Shown in pieces: positions 3,318 to 13,057 of a DNA stretch of 13,057 bases (position 1 is the stretch's first letter; every line of letters begins with the position of its first letter). Made by a program: the position numbers and the translations under genes. The notes under the pieces were generated by a model. That model was not told the DNA's origin and made no database searches. It saw only the letters and a program-made list of their open reading frames with translations. Location: the IMG/VR virus record IMGVR_UViG_2778261569_000004; one strand, 5' to 3'. This DNA is from a virus. Its lineage: Duplodnaviria; Heunggongvirae; Uroviricota; Caudoviricetes.

Positions 3318-3596
3318 TCAGGCCTCGAAGAATTCGCCGTTCTTCGGGGCTTTTTCTTTTGTCAGGATTCTGGCTACTTTCTTAGCCAGTTCCGCCAACT
3401 CCTCGTCTTCAACACCCCATTCAAGAACAGCCAGAAGCATTCCCATTTTGGGGATGAAGCTATCTTTCCATCGCGAAATTTGCGATTCATTAATCCCTAA
3501 CGCGTCGGCAACCTTTCGCTGACCACGTACAGCAATTCGATTCAGGATGTTGCTTGTAATTGCATTCGCTTTCTTGCGAGTACTTGTAAGTTGCAT
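3318..3596 (-). CDS. cII: CII transcriptional activator (lysogeny establishment)
   Basis: Recognised similarity to lambda CII, including the near-identical block SQISRWK...[13 protein letters not shown]. The translation-initiation region TAAGGAAATACTTACATATG matches the classic lambda cII ribosome-binding site, so the start is ATG 3596, not the upstream start in the ORF track. Confidence 0.85.
3323..3360 (+). terminator. Rho-independent terminator on the strand antisense to cII (oop-like terminator)
   Basis: Stem CCTCGAAGAA/TTCTTCGGGG (3323-3332 / 3340-3349, one G-U pair), 7-nt loop, then CTTTTTCTTTT (3350-3360). It lies on the plus strand inside the 3' end of minus-strand cII, the geometry of the lambda oop RNA terminator. 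Confidence 0.55.
3550..3563 (+). promoter_or_regulatory. CII-binding site TTGC-N6-TTGC (PRE-like establishment promoter -35 region)
   Basis: TTGCTTGTAATTGC on the plus strand inside the cII N-terminal codons, oriented to drive transcription antisense through cro towards cI, as lambda PRE does. The -10 element is not confidently identified. Confidence 0.5.
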
Positions 3597-3655
3597 ATGT
3601 AAGTATTTCCTTAACAAATAAGAAGTTATGCGCATCAAATTATGCGCGTTGTATT

Positions 3656-3698
3656 CCCGCATTTCGGCGGGAATGATGACCATGACTGTTAAAGAGCG
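3656..3698 (-). promoter_or_regulatory. nutR site (boxA plus boxB hairpin)
   Basis: On the minus strand just after the cro stop: boxA CGCTCTTTAACA (plus 3687-3698, reverse complement), then boxB hairpin CCCGC-CGAAAT-GCGGG (plus 3656-3671). The boxB sequence is identical to the one at nutL. Confidence 0.6.
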
Positions 3699-3704
3699 GT
3701 GTTA

Positions 3705-3899
3705 CTATTTGTTTTTCTTGTTGCTTGGGAAAGGACGAACTTCCTCTCCAATCACACTGCCATCAGGCTTTACCGTAACCATGATGTTACGGCCTGCCAG
3801 AATGGCCTTGCTGATAGCGCACTGGATTACACCAAAGTCACTGGCTGCTTTAGCCTGTCCATGGATTTTGGCGTAATCGGCAAGTGTCATTCGAATCAT
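3705..3899 (-). CDS. cro: Cro repressor
   Basis: Recognised similarity to lambda Cro (TLADYA..GQ.K.A.D.GV.Q.AI.KAI.AGR.I.....DGSV..EEV.PFPSNKK). Start placed at ATG 3899 with a GGAGAG Shine-Dalgarno 5 nt upstream. Divergent from cI across the operator region. Confidence 0.85.
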
Positions 3900-3929
3900 A
3901 TGCACTCTCCGTTATTAACCATGAACAAA

Positions 3930-3995
3930 GAATACTACAGGTATTCAAAGCAATCAATACTCAGGGTATTTTTAGTTTAAGTACCTTAGCTATTA
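3930..3995. promoter_or_regulatory. OR operator region: three 17-bp operators with divergent PR and PRM promoters
   Basis: Operators GAATACTACAGGTATTC (3930-3946) and CAATACTCAGGGTATTT (3955-3971) are palindromic; a degenerate third site AAGTACCTTAGCTATTA lies at 3979-3995. Centre spacings are 25 and 24 bp. PR candidate on the minus strand: -35 TTGATT, 17-bp spacer, -10 TATTCT. PRM candidate on the plus strand: -10 TAGAAT at 3994-3999, which places +1 at about the A of the cI ATG (leaderless; no Shine-Dalgarno before cI). Confidence 0.6.
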
Positions 3996-4005
3996 GAATT
4001 AAGCT

Positions 4006-4722
4006 ATGGAAAATAAAAAATCACTGACGACAGAACAGCTCGAAGACGCTAAGCGGCTTAAGGCTTTGTATGAGTCAAAAAAGAAAGAATTGGGAATAAC
4101 CCAATACTCAATCGCTGATGAACTGGGTATCACCCAAGGAGCGGTAGGGCATTATCTTAATGGCAGAAACGCGCTAAACGTTGAGGTCGCATCTGGTTTT
4201 GCACGTTTGTTGCAAGTCTCAATTGCTGATTTTAGCCAGTCAATTGCTGCCAAGGTTGCAGAACAGGCAGAAAGCCTTAAGAGCGATGCCAACGTAAGGT
4301 ATGCAGGGGAATACAGAGCAGGAAAGAGGTATCCGGTGTTAAGCAGTATCCAGGCTGGCTCGTGGTGTGAAGCATGCGAACCATACACCATTAAAGACAT
4401 AGATGTTTGGCTTGAGTCTGACGCGCATATTCAAGGTAATGCGTTCTGGCTTAAAGTGGAAGGTGATTCAATGACGGCACCGGTTGGGTTAAGCATTCCA
4501 GAGGGAACATTCGTTCTTTTCGATACCGGAAGGGAGGCGATCAACGGCAGCTTGGTCATAGCAAAACTTTCTGACTCTAACGAAGCAACATTCAAGAAGC
4601 TGATAATCGACGGCGGAAATAAATACCTCAAGGGACTTAATCCTGCATGGCCTCTCGTGCCAATCAATGGAAACTGCAAGATTATAGGCGTTGCAATTGA
4701 GACAAAACTAAGGCTGGTTTGA
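4006..4722 (+). CDS. cI: CI repressor (HTH DNA-binding domain plus LexA/S24-type autocleavage domain)
   Basis: Recognised similarity to lambda CI: N-terminal LTxEQLEDAKRLKALYE.KK.ELG..Q.S.AD..G and C-terminal FWL.VEGDSMTAP ... ATFKKLI (Ser/Lys dyad). Divergent from cro. Confidence 0.9.
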   Translation: MENKKSLTTEQLEDAKRLKALYESKKKELGITQYSIADELGITQGAVGHYLNGRNALNVEVASGFARLLQVSIADFSQSIAAKVAEQAESLKSDANVRYAGEYRAGKRYPVLSSIQAGSWCEACEPYTIKDIDVWLESDAHIQGNAFWLKVEGDSMTAPVGLSIPEGTFVLFDTGREAINGSLVIAKLSDSNEATFKKLIIDGGNKYLKGLNPAWPLVPINGNCKIIGVAIETKLRLV

Positions 4723-4739
4723 TCACGCAAGGGGCGATT

Positions 4740-5108
4740 ATGGTTGGAACCGCTATAGCAAGCTTTTTTGGGATGTTGGCAATCTCGACAATTTACGGCT
4801 TAGCGCATGCTTTTATTGCGAAATCTCTATCAGAAAAAATAAGCCAGGCTTGGGCGCATAGATCAGCTCGTTTCATGATTCTGGTGATCATAGCAATACA
4901 AGGGATATCTGCATTTATCCTCTATGGATCAAGCTTATACCTATTGTATCAAGGCGCGACATTTACGCCTTACACCAGTGATTACGGAACTCTATACGAT
5001 GGTAGTGAAGACATCACTGTGGCTTGGATCGTCTTTGGTTTATCTATGGCCGTGTCTGTTGTAGCAGACATCATTAAGGTAATTCTCGTCTTAACCTTCG
5101 CTGACTAA
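4740..5108 (+). CDS. Small integral membrane protein in the rex/sie position, co-transcribed with cI (candidate superinfection-exclusion or defence protein)
   Basis: ORF track frame 4719..5108; start placed at ATG 4740 with an AAGGGG Shine-Dalgarno, 18 nt after the cI stop. Three hydrophobic helices predicted by eye (about residues 1-25, 45-70 and 95-120). It occupies the lambda rexAB slot between cI and OL. No homologue recognised. Confidence 0.6.
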   Translation: MVGTAIASFFGMLAISTIYGLAHAFIAKSLSEKISQAWAHRSARFMILVIIAIQGISAFILYGSSLYLLYQGATFTPYTSDYGTLYDGSEDITVAWIVFGLSMAVSVVADIIKVILVLTFAD

Positions 5109-5193
5109 CCTATAATCCCGGCAGCAATAGCTATCGGGATCCACTTCACATATCCCGCATAAAAAGCACTGAACAAGCAGACACCGAAAAAAT

Positions 5194-5281
5194 AAATATC
5201 CTTTGTATTCATTTGCTTATCATTATTTCACCAAAAATAAATACCTTGGGTATTTACACAATAAAATACCTACAGTATTCT
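5194..5281 (+). promoter_or_regulatory. OL operator region and PL promoter
   Basis: Three 17-bp operators of the same family as OR: AAATATCCTTTGTATTC (5194-5210), AAATACCTTGGGTATTT (5239-5255) and AAATACCTACAGTATTC (5264-5280). PL candidate: -35 TTTACA (5253-5258), 17-bp spacer, -10 TATTCT (5276-5281), overlapping the operators as in lambda. Confidence 0.55.
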
Positions 5282-5326: not shown

Positions 5327-5367
5327 GGCTCTTTAACATTGATGGGATTGTCCCGCCGAAATGCGGG
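5327..5367 (+). promoter_or_regulatory. nutL site (boxA plus boxB hairpin)
   Basis: boxA GGCTCTTTAACA (5327-5338) followed by boxB CCCGC-CGAAAT-GCGGG (5352-5367), identical to the boxB at nutR; lies in the leader between PL and N. Confidence 0.6.
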
Positions 5368-5475
5368 AACCAAAGAGTAGTTGGCTTTGGGGTGACGTGA
5401 AGTGCAGCTGCACGACGGCAACCGGAAGATAAGCACCCGGCGCGTCACCGCCAAAGTCAATCATCGGAGGTCAAC

Positions 5476-5748
5476 ATGACAGTAGTCATTACATATCTGG
5501 CTGACGATAACGCCAGAAATCGCCGCAGAGCACGCAGACAGGCTCAACGTGAACAGGCAATGCAAGAGCAGCGACTGGCACGAAAAATTGCGCTAAAGCT
5601 CTCTGGTTGCGTCAGAGCAGATAAAGCAGCATCACTCGGAAGCCTTTGCTGCAAGGAAGAAGATGAACGCAGTGGAAGTATTTGCCTGCCAAACGTAGCC
5701 ATTTACGCGGCAGGATACCGGAAATCAAAACAACTGACAGCGAGGTAA
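5476..5748 (+). CDS. N: Antitermination protein N (P22 gene 24-like)
   Basis: N-terminal arginine-rich motif NARNRRRARRQAQREQ (boxB RNA-binding ARM); C-terminus ...AIYAAGYRKSKQLTAR resembles my recollection of P22 gp24; GGAGG Shine-Dalgarno; first gene downstream of PL and nutL. Confidence 0.8.
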   Translation: MTVVITYLADDNARNRRRARRQAQREQAMQEQRLARKIALKLSGCVRADKAASLGSLCCKEEDERSGSICLPNVAIYAAGYRKSKQLTAR

Positions 5749-6038: not shown

Positions 6039-6125
6039 ATGGAAGAAGAATTTGAAGAGTTCGAAGAGCATCCTCAGGATGTGATGGAACAATACCAGGA
6101 CTATCCGTATGACTACGACTATTGA
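6039..6125 (+). CDS. Putative very small acidic protein (28 aa)
   Basis: ATG 6039 preceded by GAGGTGA; translation MEEEFEEFEEHPQDVMEQYQDYPYDYDY. Below the ORF-track cut-off; speculative. Confidence 0.2.
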   Translation: MEEEFEEFEEHPQDVMEQYQDYPYDYDY

Positions 6126-11509: not shown

Positions 11510-11821
11510 ATGGAGATGATTATGGTCTGTTCAACATTCAACCATCTAACGTTACAGAAATACCAGCCAGACCCTGAAGATTTATGCTCACTGTGTGGCG
11601 GAAATCATGGTAAAGCCGCCATGATCGAATGTAATGACAAAATCCACATTTGCCTTAATTGCGTTGATGTCCTCGTTGATATCAAAAATGAGAGAGAAGA
11701 TAAAAAGCGTAGCGAGGCTATTCGCGCCTTAGATTCATGGATGCGAGATGGGTATAGTGCTGCGCAAATTTATGACTTAGCAATATCAAAAGGCGAAATA
11801 CCAGGAGTACGCATCGAATAA
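11510..11821 (+). CDS. Hypothetical zinc-ribbon-like protein (103 aa)
   Basis: ORF track. Two Cys pairs, CSLCGG and CLNC, about 20 residues apart. An alternative start at ATG 11522 is better placed relative to the GGAG at 11512-11515. Confidence 0.45.
   Translation: MEMIMVCSTFNHLTLQKYQPDPEDLCSLCGGNHGKAAMIECNDKIHICLNCVDVLVDIKNEREDKKRSEAIRALDSWMRDGYSAAQIYDLAISKGEIPGVRIE

Positions 11822-12499: not shown

Positions 12500-13057
<558 letters not shown>

Follow-up and report, generated by a model that had tools for sequence, protein, structure and literature searches.

A probable HK620-type immunity switch in a lambdoid prophage, with a candidate distal operator upstream of PL

The region between positions 3930 and 5280 of the window (the whole stretch of viral DNA analysed here, 13,057 nt) is, judging from its sequence, very probably the lysis/lysogeny immunity switch of a lambdoid E. 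coli prophage of the HK620 immunity type, a reading to which we assign a probability of about 0.88. The operators and gene anatomy of this type are already annotated for HK620 (GenBank AF335538, Clark et al. 2001), and nothing in the switch itself is new: OR1–OR3, OL1, OL2, pR and pL stand at exactly the same coordinates in that record, with nutL and nutR also at matching places. The difference concerns the third OL site, which we place at 5194–5210, whereas the record has OL3 at 5217–5233 and a terminator, tIMM, at 5190–5220.

Genes, operators and promoters of the switch

The genes of the region share their order with lambda and encode homologous CI, Cro, cII and N proteins. The minus strand carries cII, nutR and cro, and the plus strand reads OR1–OR3, cI, hkaS, OL with PL, nutL and N. 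The cII gene (3318–3596, minus strand), for the activator of lysogeny establishment, encodes 92 aa (Pfam Phage_CII, E = 1e-42) and has the same coordinates in HK620. The nutR site (3654–3697, minus strand) consists of boxA GCTCTTTAAC at 3688–3697 and a boxB hairpin (TTCCCGCCGAAATGCGGGAA, 3654–3673); these boxA and boxB sequences recur at nutL (5328–5368, plus strand), where boxA GCTCTTTAAC occupies 5328–5337 and boxB TCCCGCCGAAATGCGGGA occupies 5351–5368, and both nut sites match their HK620 annotation. The 64-aa Cro (3705–3899, minus strand) matches the Pfam family Cro (E = 4e-26) and lambda Cro in the PDB (E = 5e-19); its gene has a GGAG 7 nt 5′ of the ATG and diverges from cI across 106 bp.

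The cI gene (4006–4722, plus strand) encodes a 238-aa repressor with an N-terminal HTH and a C-terminal S24 domain (Pfam HTH_3 and Peptidase_S24), matching the lambda repressor (3bdn) over residues 3–232 (E = 3e-52). Aligned to the lambda repressor, it keeps the Ala-Gly cleavage site (QAG), the serine of GDSM and the lysine of TFKK; with these autocleavage elements retained, induction should therefore run via RecA/SOS. The place that rexAB takes in lambda, 3′ of cI, is occupied here by hkaS (4740–5108, plus strand), encoding a predicted membrane protein of 122 aa that is annotated in HK620 and matches phrog_6534 (unknown function, E = 2e-79), with no Pfam family above the cut-off. Since hkaS replaces rexAB, OL and OR are 1.3 kb apart here versus ~2.3 kb in lambda. 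A second operator cluster overlaps PL, 5′ of nutL and N, and holds OL1, OL2 and a third site of uncertain standing. N itself (5476–5748, plus strand) is a 90-aa antiterminator with GGAGG upstream, recognised by Pfam N_peptide (E = 5e-15) and annotated as N in HK620.

An earlier note on this DNA had listed six 17-bp sites in the two clusters, and all six are present. OR1 (GAATACTACAGGTATTC, 3930–3946) and OR2 (CAATACTCAGGGTATTT, 3955–3971) both have a perfect core, the former overlapping the PR −10 and the latter overlapping the PR −35 and abutting the weak PRM −35; OR3 (AAGTACCTTAGCTATTA, 3979–3995) has two core mismatches and overlaps the PRM −10. At the other cluster, OL1 (AAATACCTACAGTATTC, 5264–5280; perfect core) overlaps the PL −10, OL2 (AAATACCTTGGGTATTT, 5239–5255; a perfect palindrome core) overlaps the PL −35, and a distal site (AAATATCCTTTGTATTC, 5194–5210; one core mismatch) lies 45 bp from OL2. 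Apart from this distal site, all bear the same names in the HK620 record. The consensus proposed earlier, AAATAC(C/T)-N4-GGTATTT, spans 18 bp as written and the sites span 17 bp, so that the gap must be N3. With centres at 3938, 3963 and 3987, the OR sites do have the reported spacings of 25 and 24 bp, although the likeness to the geometry of lambda (24 and 23 bp) that had been read into them is off by 1 bp per step. The OL spacings, absent from the earlier note, are 25 and 45 bp versus 24 and 20 bp in lambda, and the third OL site falls outside adjacent-site geometry. Shared with lambda are the 17-bp sites with a central base pair, the presence of three sites at OR, and an OR3 that stops 10 nt short of the cI ATG. 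As in a lambda-type switch, the cI–cro interval contains three related pseudo-palindromic operators ~2.3 helical turns apart.

A consensus search for AATAC-N5-GTATT across the 13-kb window, allowing up to one mismatch, returned five matches, every one of them in OR or OL, versus 0.35 expected; none of 200 shuffles reached five. When a weight matrix trained on the four perfect sites was scored at 13041 positions, the distal OL site ranked 5th and OR3 7th. OR3 is not separable from chance by sequence alone, because its score of 7.7 falls between those of two unrelated positions (8.9 and 7.1); the assignment rests on position and on homology to better OR3 sites in relatives, which have one mismatch at the same place.

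The predicted PR (3929–3957, minus strand) has a −35 TTGATT (3957–3952) and a −10 TATTCT (3934–3929) separated by a 17-nt spacer, with a predicted start near 3922. It matches 8 of 12 consensus positions, under the threshold of the promoter scan, shares its −10 hexamer with PL and corresponds to pR in HK620. PL (5253–5281, plus strand; −35 TTTACA, 17-nt spacer, −10 TATTCT) was the sole promoter reported by the consensus scan, which returned neither PR nor PRM; its predicted +1 is A5288, from which the transcript would begin AUCAGCAGG, and this start region is homologous to that of lambda PL. The predicted PRM combines a poor −35 (TTTAGT, 3971–3976) with a −10 TAGAAT (3994–3999, plus strand) that precedes the cI ATG by 6 nt, and its predicted +1 is A4006. 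Read directly from the sequence, these candidate PR and PRM hexamers would overlap the operators back to back, in a layout that agrees with the HK620 pR annotation and with lambda.

In the proposed switch, CI dimers would recognise 17-bp pseudo-palindromes of the form xAATAC(C/T)-N3-(G/A)GTATTx. CI on OR1 and OR2 would block PR and, by analogy with lambda, may aid RNA polymerase at the weak PRM, while OR3, the poorest site and one that overlaps the PRM −10, would switch PRM off at high CI. CI on OL1 and OL2 would cover the −10 and −35 of PL, stopping transcription of N, and Cro expressed from PR would bind the same sites, lowering PRM and later PR and PL. Phage 933W shows that a lambdoid switch need not be cooperative: its binding at OR is non-cooperative, and its OL has two operators (PMC5977221). 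We assume cooperativity at OR here, with spacings 1 bp longer than those of lambda; compared to 933W, the repressor specificity differs, OR1 and OR2 both have perfect cores, and nothing suggests that cooperativity has been lost.

Operator specificity and the HK620 immunity group

The reading of these sites as predicted CI/Cro operators is supported, with every computable part of it in agreement. Our comparison covered ~160 related loci, and polymorphism was scored in 66–67 close relatives. Among the latter, 2 of 60 core positions are variable, compared to 9 of 30 central positions and 12 of 51 spacer positions (Fisher p = 6.5e-4 and 2.8e-3). The same motif is found in prophages of more than 12 Enterobacterales genera whose CI proteins are 54–76% identical. 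In distant relatives, it stands at −73 to −76, −49 to −51 and −25 to −27 from the cI ATG, and it also occurs as a 25-bp pair ahead of PL; a search among GenBank phages gave no near match to two divergent relatives (L066 and L069). The motif tracks the CI helix Q[GS][AG][VI][GA]HY, being present in 23 of the 25 loci with this helix versus 1 of 55 others (Fisher p = 1e-16), and the recognition helix in the window is QGAVGHYLN.

Cro fits the same half-site. The Cro helix QCAISK has Gln, Ala and Lys at H1, H3 and H6, from which a published recognition code for Cro proteins (PMC6649833) predicts A, A and C at positions 2, 5 and 6 of the half-site; A-A-A-T-A-C fits all three predictions. Compared to the lambda half-site (TATCACCG), AAATAC(C/T) differs at positions 1, 3 and 4, in step with the changes S45G, G46A and A49H in CI and S28C and N31S in Cro.

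CI is identical to that of HK620 at 237 of 238 residues and Cro at 64 of 64. A comparison of operator sets with those of known immunity groups, as the earlier note had proposed, finds OR (3900–4005) identical to that of HK620 and OL different from it at two spacer positions only, with all OL sites identical. Having the same CI, Cro and operators, the window belongs to the HK620 immunity group, and homoimmunity with HK620 is predicted. The region is 98–100% identical to HK620, HK630, HK140, mEpX2 and others, and HK620-type immunity is also found in vB_EcoP_phi296/phi367 and some Stx2c prophages. Outside the immunity region, the mosaic of the window differs from that of HK620, and the best phage record covers at most 57% of the window. 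The region is carried by 145 of 5426 complete E. coli genomes (~2.7%). A search of the literature for experiments on the repressor or operators of HK620, or on mEpX2 immunity, gave nothing relevant.

The distal OL site and the conserved block upstream of PL

The site at 5194–5210, 45 bp from OL2, is a likely, weaker candidate for the third OL operator; as an operator it is the weakest of the six, and it has a rival explanation. In 66 close relatives, 1 of its 17 positions is polymorphic, and its 45-bp position recurs in eight other loci, one of them with a perfect core. It is enclosed by a block upstream of PL (5187–5219, plus strand) that consists of an A-tract, AAAAAATAAAT, at 5187–5197 (−101 to −91 of PL) and an IHF-core-like sequence, ATTCATTTGCTTA, at 5207–5219. 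The A-tract is equally far from the PL start in lambda and in the 20 other related loci that we compared, although it is not universal in lambdoid phages, as CUS-3 (P22-type immunity) is without it. The IHF reading of the second element is tentative, because a consensus scan allowing one mismatch found matches in some relatives only, and none in the window or in lambda.

It is quite possible, at odds somewhat worse than even, that 5194–5210 is not a working operator and owes its resemblance to the A-tract and to the IHF-core-like ATTCA-N5-TTA (at about −81 to −69) that it overlaps. These elements would then serve the stimulation of PL, and perhaps of PRM via an OL–OR loop, as does the distal UP element near OL in lambda, which works together with IHF at PL and, within the loop, on PRM (PMC3708714; PMC8053113). 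OL would be left with two operators, making 933W, which has no OL3 (PMC5977221), the closest parallel. The A-tract speaks for this explanation, as it occupies exactly −101 to −91 in lambda, which has no operator there, and is kept in the other 20 loci wherever their third OL site lies. Furthermore, an alignment of nine loci has the A-tract, A-x-TCA and TA as its invariant columns, with operator positions 6, 12, 13 and 15 varying; IHF consensus matches with up to one mismatch start at −81 or −80 in six loci; and in L066, L067, L090 and L091 the right half of the site is degenerate, with two mismatches.

Several features nevertheless point to an operator. The distal site of the window fits 9 of 10 core positions, and its sole deviation, AATAT, is also found in OR2 sites of relatives that are certain from their position (L089, AAATATCCCAGGTATTT; L141, AAATATCCCTAGTATTT), and in the Kluyvera locus L108 the core at this 45-bp position is perfect. 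In this block, the sequence is AAATTCC...AATCA in loci that have a proximal third site and AAATAYC...RTAYTCA in those that have none, a shift at four positions toward the operator and away from the IHF consensus. The IHF-like match of the window has two mismatches, which puts it under the scan threshold, and the operator and UP/IHF roles are compatible rather than mutually exclusive.

A further reading, which we would put a little short of even odds, is that the third OL operator is movable in the family, located 21, 30 or 45 bp from OL2 or absent altogether. In the HK620 type, the operator would lie at 45 bp, centred at −86 of PL and superimposed on the A-tract/IHF-like module, which keeps a fixed distance from PL across the lambda-CI superfamily, lambda included; the OL3 and tIMM annotation of HK620 would then be wrong.

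The cI transcript and the wider family

The earlier note had also predicted a leaderless cI transcript, based on a −10 hexamer 7 bp upstream and the lack of a Shine-Dalgarno sequence. Both observations are borne out: TAGAAT (3994–3999) is followed by TAAGCT and the ATG at 4006, the last T of the hexamer being 7 bp before the A, and GGAG, GAGG, AGGA and AAGG are all absent upstream. Position 4006 is the first start codon in the cI frame after the stop. A leaderless start is expected because the −10 ends 6 nt before the ATG, and the layout is the same as in lambda (TAGATT-TAACGT-ATG versus TAGAAT-TAAGCT-ATG), where cI mRNA from pRM is an established leaderless message (PMC10491246). The cI maintenance transcript most probably starts at the A of the ATG. 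In the 28 tabulated loci, a TAnnnT hexamer stands 5–7 nt before the cI ATG in all 28, with a variable spacer, and an SD-like word is absent upstream of cI in 26.

It is unlikely that the maintenance transcript instead begins a few nucleotides further upstream, or comes from a different promoter, giving a leadered mRNA that lacks a Shine-Dalgarno sequence. Such a start could be accommodated, as the position of the start is a prediction, the 5–7-nt spacing among relatives would put some of their starts 1 nt to either side of the A, and an overlapping hexamer, TATTAG (3991–3996), could produce a leader of 3 nt; the PRE transcript, which depends on cII, moreover must be leadered and is likewise without a Shine-Dalgarno sequence here. 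However, the lambda PRM transcript, with the same layout, starts at the A of the AUG (PMC10491246), this layout is kept in all 28 tabulated loci despite their varying spacer sequence, OR3 and PR take up the space that a ribosome-binding site would need, and the promoter scan returned no other promoter-like site.

At the other end of the cI transcript, it is highly improbable that the GenBank record is right in taking 5217–5233 (TTATCATTATTTCACCA), 22 bp from OL2, as OL3 and 5190–5220 as the intrinsic terminator tIMM, even though that OL3 mimics the 20-bp OL2–OL3 distance of lambda and AAATAAATA could form an all-A/T stem with TATTCATTT. We rejected the annotated OL3 on its weight-matrix score of −35 bits (rank 8449 of 13041; nothing between 5205 and 5238 is operator-like) and on its polymorphism, as close relatives vary at 4 of its 17 positions, with a 36:30 polymorphism and a 1-bp deletion among them, which is spacer-like. 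The terminator was rejected because the terminator scan had no plus-strand match at 5190–5220 and the minimum-energy RNA fold does not form the AAATAAATA/TATTCATTT stem, which is also not kept in L066 or L067; unlike lambda, the window has no obvious intrinsic terminator before OL. The site at 5194–5210 is a better OL3 candidate than that of GenBank, and the OL3 and tIMM features of the HK620 record are probably wrong.

Working from raw sequence, the analysis arrives again at the regulatory anatomy that was described with HK620 in 2001 for a common type of E. coli prophage immunity, and its importance beyond annotation is small. For the family, it indicates that the specificity for AATAC-N5-GTATT, which goes with the CI helix QGAVGHY, reaches prophages of many Enterobacterales genera, and that the leaderless-type cI layout is kept throughout the loci of this specificity. 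Those working on the distal UP element and IHF at PL may be interested in the A-tract, whose distance from PL is constant from lambda to these phages. If the third OL operator is indeed movable, CI bound there could compete with or replace the action of IHF and the UP element on PL, and could also position the UP element for PRM in an OL–OR loop.

The immunity region and its known relatives

The immunity genes lie in a window whose plus strand is in reverse orientation relative to the conventional lambda map. The minus strand carries cII (3318-3596; Pfam Phage_CII), nutR (3654-3697, between cII and cro) and cro (3705-3899; Pfam Cro), whose product aligns with lambda Cro (E = 5e-19). A divergent gap of 106 bp, the cro-cI control region, separates cro from cI (4006-4722, plus strand; Pfam HTH_3 and Peptidase_S24), and the lambda repressor alignment covers CI residues 3 to 232 (E = 3e-52). 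Directly 3′ of cI, in the slot of lambda rexAB, hkaS (4740-5108, plus strand) encodes a 122-aa predicted membrane protein of phrog_6534, a family of unknown function. PRM, the cI maintenance promoter, presumably drives its expression in the lysogen, and in relatives unrelated genes occupy the hkaS slot. The second control region (OL/PL), nutL (5328-5368) and N (5476-5748; Pfam N_peptide) follow on the plus strand. The two nut sites have boxA GCTCTTTAAC in common, and their boxB hairpins (TCCCGCCGAAATGCGGGA) are identical.

This switch has been described before, as the immunity region of HK620. The 2.5-kb stretch that contains it is 100% identical to two EHEC phages, 99.5% to mEpX2 and 98% to HK620, HK630 and HK140, and CI and Cro match their HK620 counterparts at 237/238 and 64/64 residues. 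OR (3900-4005) is HK620 sequence exactly, and OL differs at 5216 and 5231 only, both between sites. A comparison with known immunity groups, which an earlier note on this DNA had proposed, identified the operators as those of HK620, where OR1, OR2, OR3, OL1, OL2, pR, pL, nutL, nutR and pRE are annotated at the corresponding coordinates (GenBank AF335538). The region occurs in 145 of 5426 complete E. coli genomes at 95% identity or higher. Over its full length the window has a different mosaic structure, the best phage record covering at most 57% of it.

Operators and their predicted recognition by CI and Cro

Six 17-bp sites are present at the positions claimed in the earlier note: OR1 (3930-3946), OR2 (3955-3971), OR3 (3979-3995), OL1 (5264-5280), OL2 (5239-5255) and a distal OL site (5194-5210), hereafter the sixth site. 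The consensus proposed with them, having a gap of N4, would span 18 bp; the correct gap is N3. The OR sites are indeed spaced 25 and 24 bp centre-to-centre, but this is the lambda geometry (24/23) plus one per step rather than the lambda geometry itself, and at OL the spacings are 25 and 45 bp, compared with 24/20 in lambda. Searching the 13-kb window for AATAC-N5-GTATT with at most one mismatch returned five matches, all inside the OR and OL clusters (0.35 expected; five reached in no shuffle). At up to two mismatches, there are 14 matches versus 5.8 expected, so OR3, with two mismatches, is not supported by sequence alone. A weight matrix trained on the four perfect sites ranked the sixth site 5th and OR3 7th of 13041 window positions. 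Two isolated operator-like 17-mers, at 11796-11812 and 6090-6106 (AAATACCAGGAGTACGC and CAATACCAGGACTATCC), score on a par with OR3 and are probably chance half-site matches within coding sequence.

Promoter positions and comparative data support the interpretation of these sites as operators. PL (TTTACA-17-TATTCT, from a promoter scan) overlaps OL2 and OL1, and PR, read from the sequence as TTGATT-17-TATTCT on the minus strand, lies across OR2 and OR1; it matches 8/12 consensus positions, slightly below the scan threshold. The putative PRM -10 reaches into the end of OR3. Among 66-67 loci with near-identical CI, 2/60 half-site core positions vary, compared with 9/30 in the central five bp and 12/51 in the spacers (Fisher p = 6.5e-4 and 2.8e-3, respectively). 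In prophages with CI 54-76% identical to that of the window (from Lelliottia, Siccibacter, Enterobacter, Tatumella, Lonsdalea, Serratia, Pantoea, Providencia, Proteus, Yersinia, Pectobacterium, Scandinavium and Kluyvera), the motif recurs at -73 to -76, -49 to -51 and -25 to -27 relative to the cI ATG, and as a pair with 25-bp spacing 5′ of PL; site centres and flanks vary freely. Across 80 species-representative loci, the cI start carries two or more copies of the motif in 23 of the 25 with the CI helix Q[GS][AG][VI][GA]HY, versus one of the 55 that have a different N-terminal domain (p = 1e-16). A neighbouring repressor subfamily (loci L101, L102, L104, L105, L110 and L112) shares the C-terminal domain and has the helix TKGAVSHWLN. 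In place of AATAC sites, its loci show TATAC-N5-GTAT sites at -103 and -44 (locus positions ~2898 and ~2957), a predicted different immunity with a different operator layout.

Residue-base contacts are assigned here after the lambda co-crystal structures. Relative to the lambda half-site TATCAC, positions 3 and 4 change jointly with CI residues 45, 46 and 49 and Cro H2 and H5, whereas CI Gln44 and Asn55 and base pairs 2 and 6 are unchanged. The window Cro has the recognition helix QCAISK, and its half-site A-A-A-T-A-C agrees at 3/3 predicted positions with the Cro code, in which Gln H1 pairs with A at position 2, Ala H3 A at position 5 and Lys H6 C at position 6 (PMC6649833).

A predicted leaderless cI transcript and its regulation

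The TAGAAT of the earlier note (3994-3999) ends 6 nt short of the cI ATG and, as the note had it, no SD-like word lies upstream. ATG 4006 is the earliest start codon in frame following a stop, and it matches the lambda CI N-terminus in alignment. The layout is lambda-like (TAGAAT-TAAGCT-ATG versus TAGATT-TAACGT-ATG in lambda), and in both OR3 is separated from the ATG by 10 nt. A TAnnnT hexamer (TAGAAT, TACAAT, TACTAT, TAATAT, TAAAAT or TAGGAT) overlaps the OR3 end, 5-7 nt (mostly 6) before the ATG, in 28/28 loci, separated from it by an unconserved spacer. An SD-like word is absent upstream of cI in 26 of these loci; in the two others, both Proteus, the sole such word, AGGA, is part of the hexamer TAGGAT. 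Neighbouring genes have clear SDs (cro GGAG, N GGAGG, hkaS AAGGGG). Together with the precedent of lambda cI from pRM, a classic leaderless mRNA (PMC10491246), the layout, its conservation and the SD absence make a leaderless PRM transcript a well-founded prediction. At window position 3990, OR3 position 12 is C (GCTATTA), where relatives have GGTATTA and lambda has GGTGAT. In lambda, GGTGAT is the SD for the leadered cI transcript from the cII-dependent promoter PRE; the PRE transcript of the window cI, like the PRM one, would be without an SD.

The regulatory mechanism, inferred from homology in all its steps, would resemble that of lambda. CI would occupy OR1/OR2 and OL1/OL2, repressing PR and PL, and OR2-bound CI, adjoining a poor PRM -35 (TTTAGT), probably activates PRM. 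Asp38 and Glu34 are part of the lambda CI activation patch; Asp38 is kept in the window CI and Glu34 is not. OR3, the weakest site, overlaps the PRM -10 and would mediate negative autoregulation, which an OL-OR loop of ~1.3 kb may assist. Cro would act on the same sites, and the prophage would be induced via RecA-stimulated CI autocleavage at Ala-Gly.

The sixth site and the DNA upstream of PL

In the HK620 record, OL3 is 5217-5233 and 5190-5220 is annotated as a terminator (tIMM). This OL3 has a weight-matrix score of -35 bits (rank 8449 of 13041), and 4/17 positions are polymorphic among close relatives, a 1-bp deletion among them; the terminator is absent from both terminator scan and RNA fold. 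The sixth site matches at 9/10 core positions, is polymorphic at 1/17, and its deviation, AATAT, also occurs in relatives, at OR2 sites that are certain from their position. Sites at the equal 45-bp offset are found in L066, L067, L089, L090, L091, L098/L099, L108 (with a perfect core) and L141; in other loci the third OL site lies at 21 or 30 bp or is missing. Where a proximal third site exists, the sixth-site place reads AAATTCC...AATCA, versus AAATAYC...RTAYTCA in loci without one, so four positions are shifted towards the operator consensus in the latter. L098/L099 (Yersinia) have a four-site array, with weak sites 21 bp as well as 45 bp upstream of OL2, which hints that the 45-bp layout could have arisen from such an array by loss of the inner site. 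In L009, L011, L016 and L017, otherwise near-identical in their immunity regions, a 1-bp deletion at 5233 brings the distal site to 44 bp from OL2. The sixth site is the best candidate for the third OL operator and the least certain of the six; the balance leans modestly towards CI binding there.

A second element may occupy part of the same DNA. An A-tract, AAAAAATAAAT (5187-5197), includes the left end of the sixth site and lies exactly at -101 to -91 of the predicted PL start (A5288). Lambda (L083, locus 284-274), which has no operator there, carries the same tract at the identical distance. So does each of the 20 further related CI-family loci in the comparison, despite differing operators and OL layouts; the tract is absent in CUS-3 (P22-type immunity). 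At its right end the site overlaps a conserved ATTCA-N5-TTA similar to the IHF core: ATTCATTTGCTTA (5207-5219) has two mismatches to WATCAANNNNTTR, the columns that match do not vary across nine loci, and in six relatives the fit to the core, at -81 or -80 of PL, has at most one mismatch. In lambda, a distal UP element beside OL is reported to act together with IHF on PL, and via the loop on PRM (PMC3708714; PMC8053113); the A-tract may be its counterpart. No intrinsic terminator is evident in the window between hkaS and PL. A stable UCCCGGC...GCCGGGA-type hairpin without a U-tract lies 3′ of the hkaS stop (5115-5140), and L066 has a different GC hairpin in its place, resembling an opposite-strand terminator.

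For a switch already described, what is added here is limited to the probable correction of one GenBank feature pair, the HK620 OL3 and tIMM, and to a comparative picture of the family.
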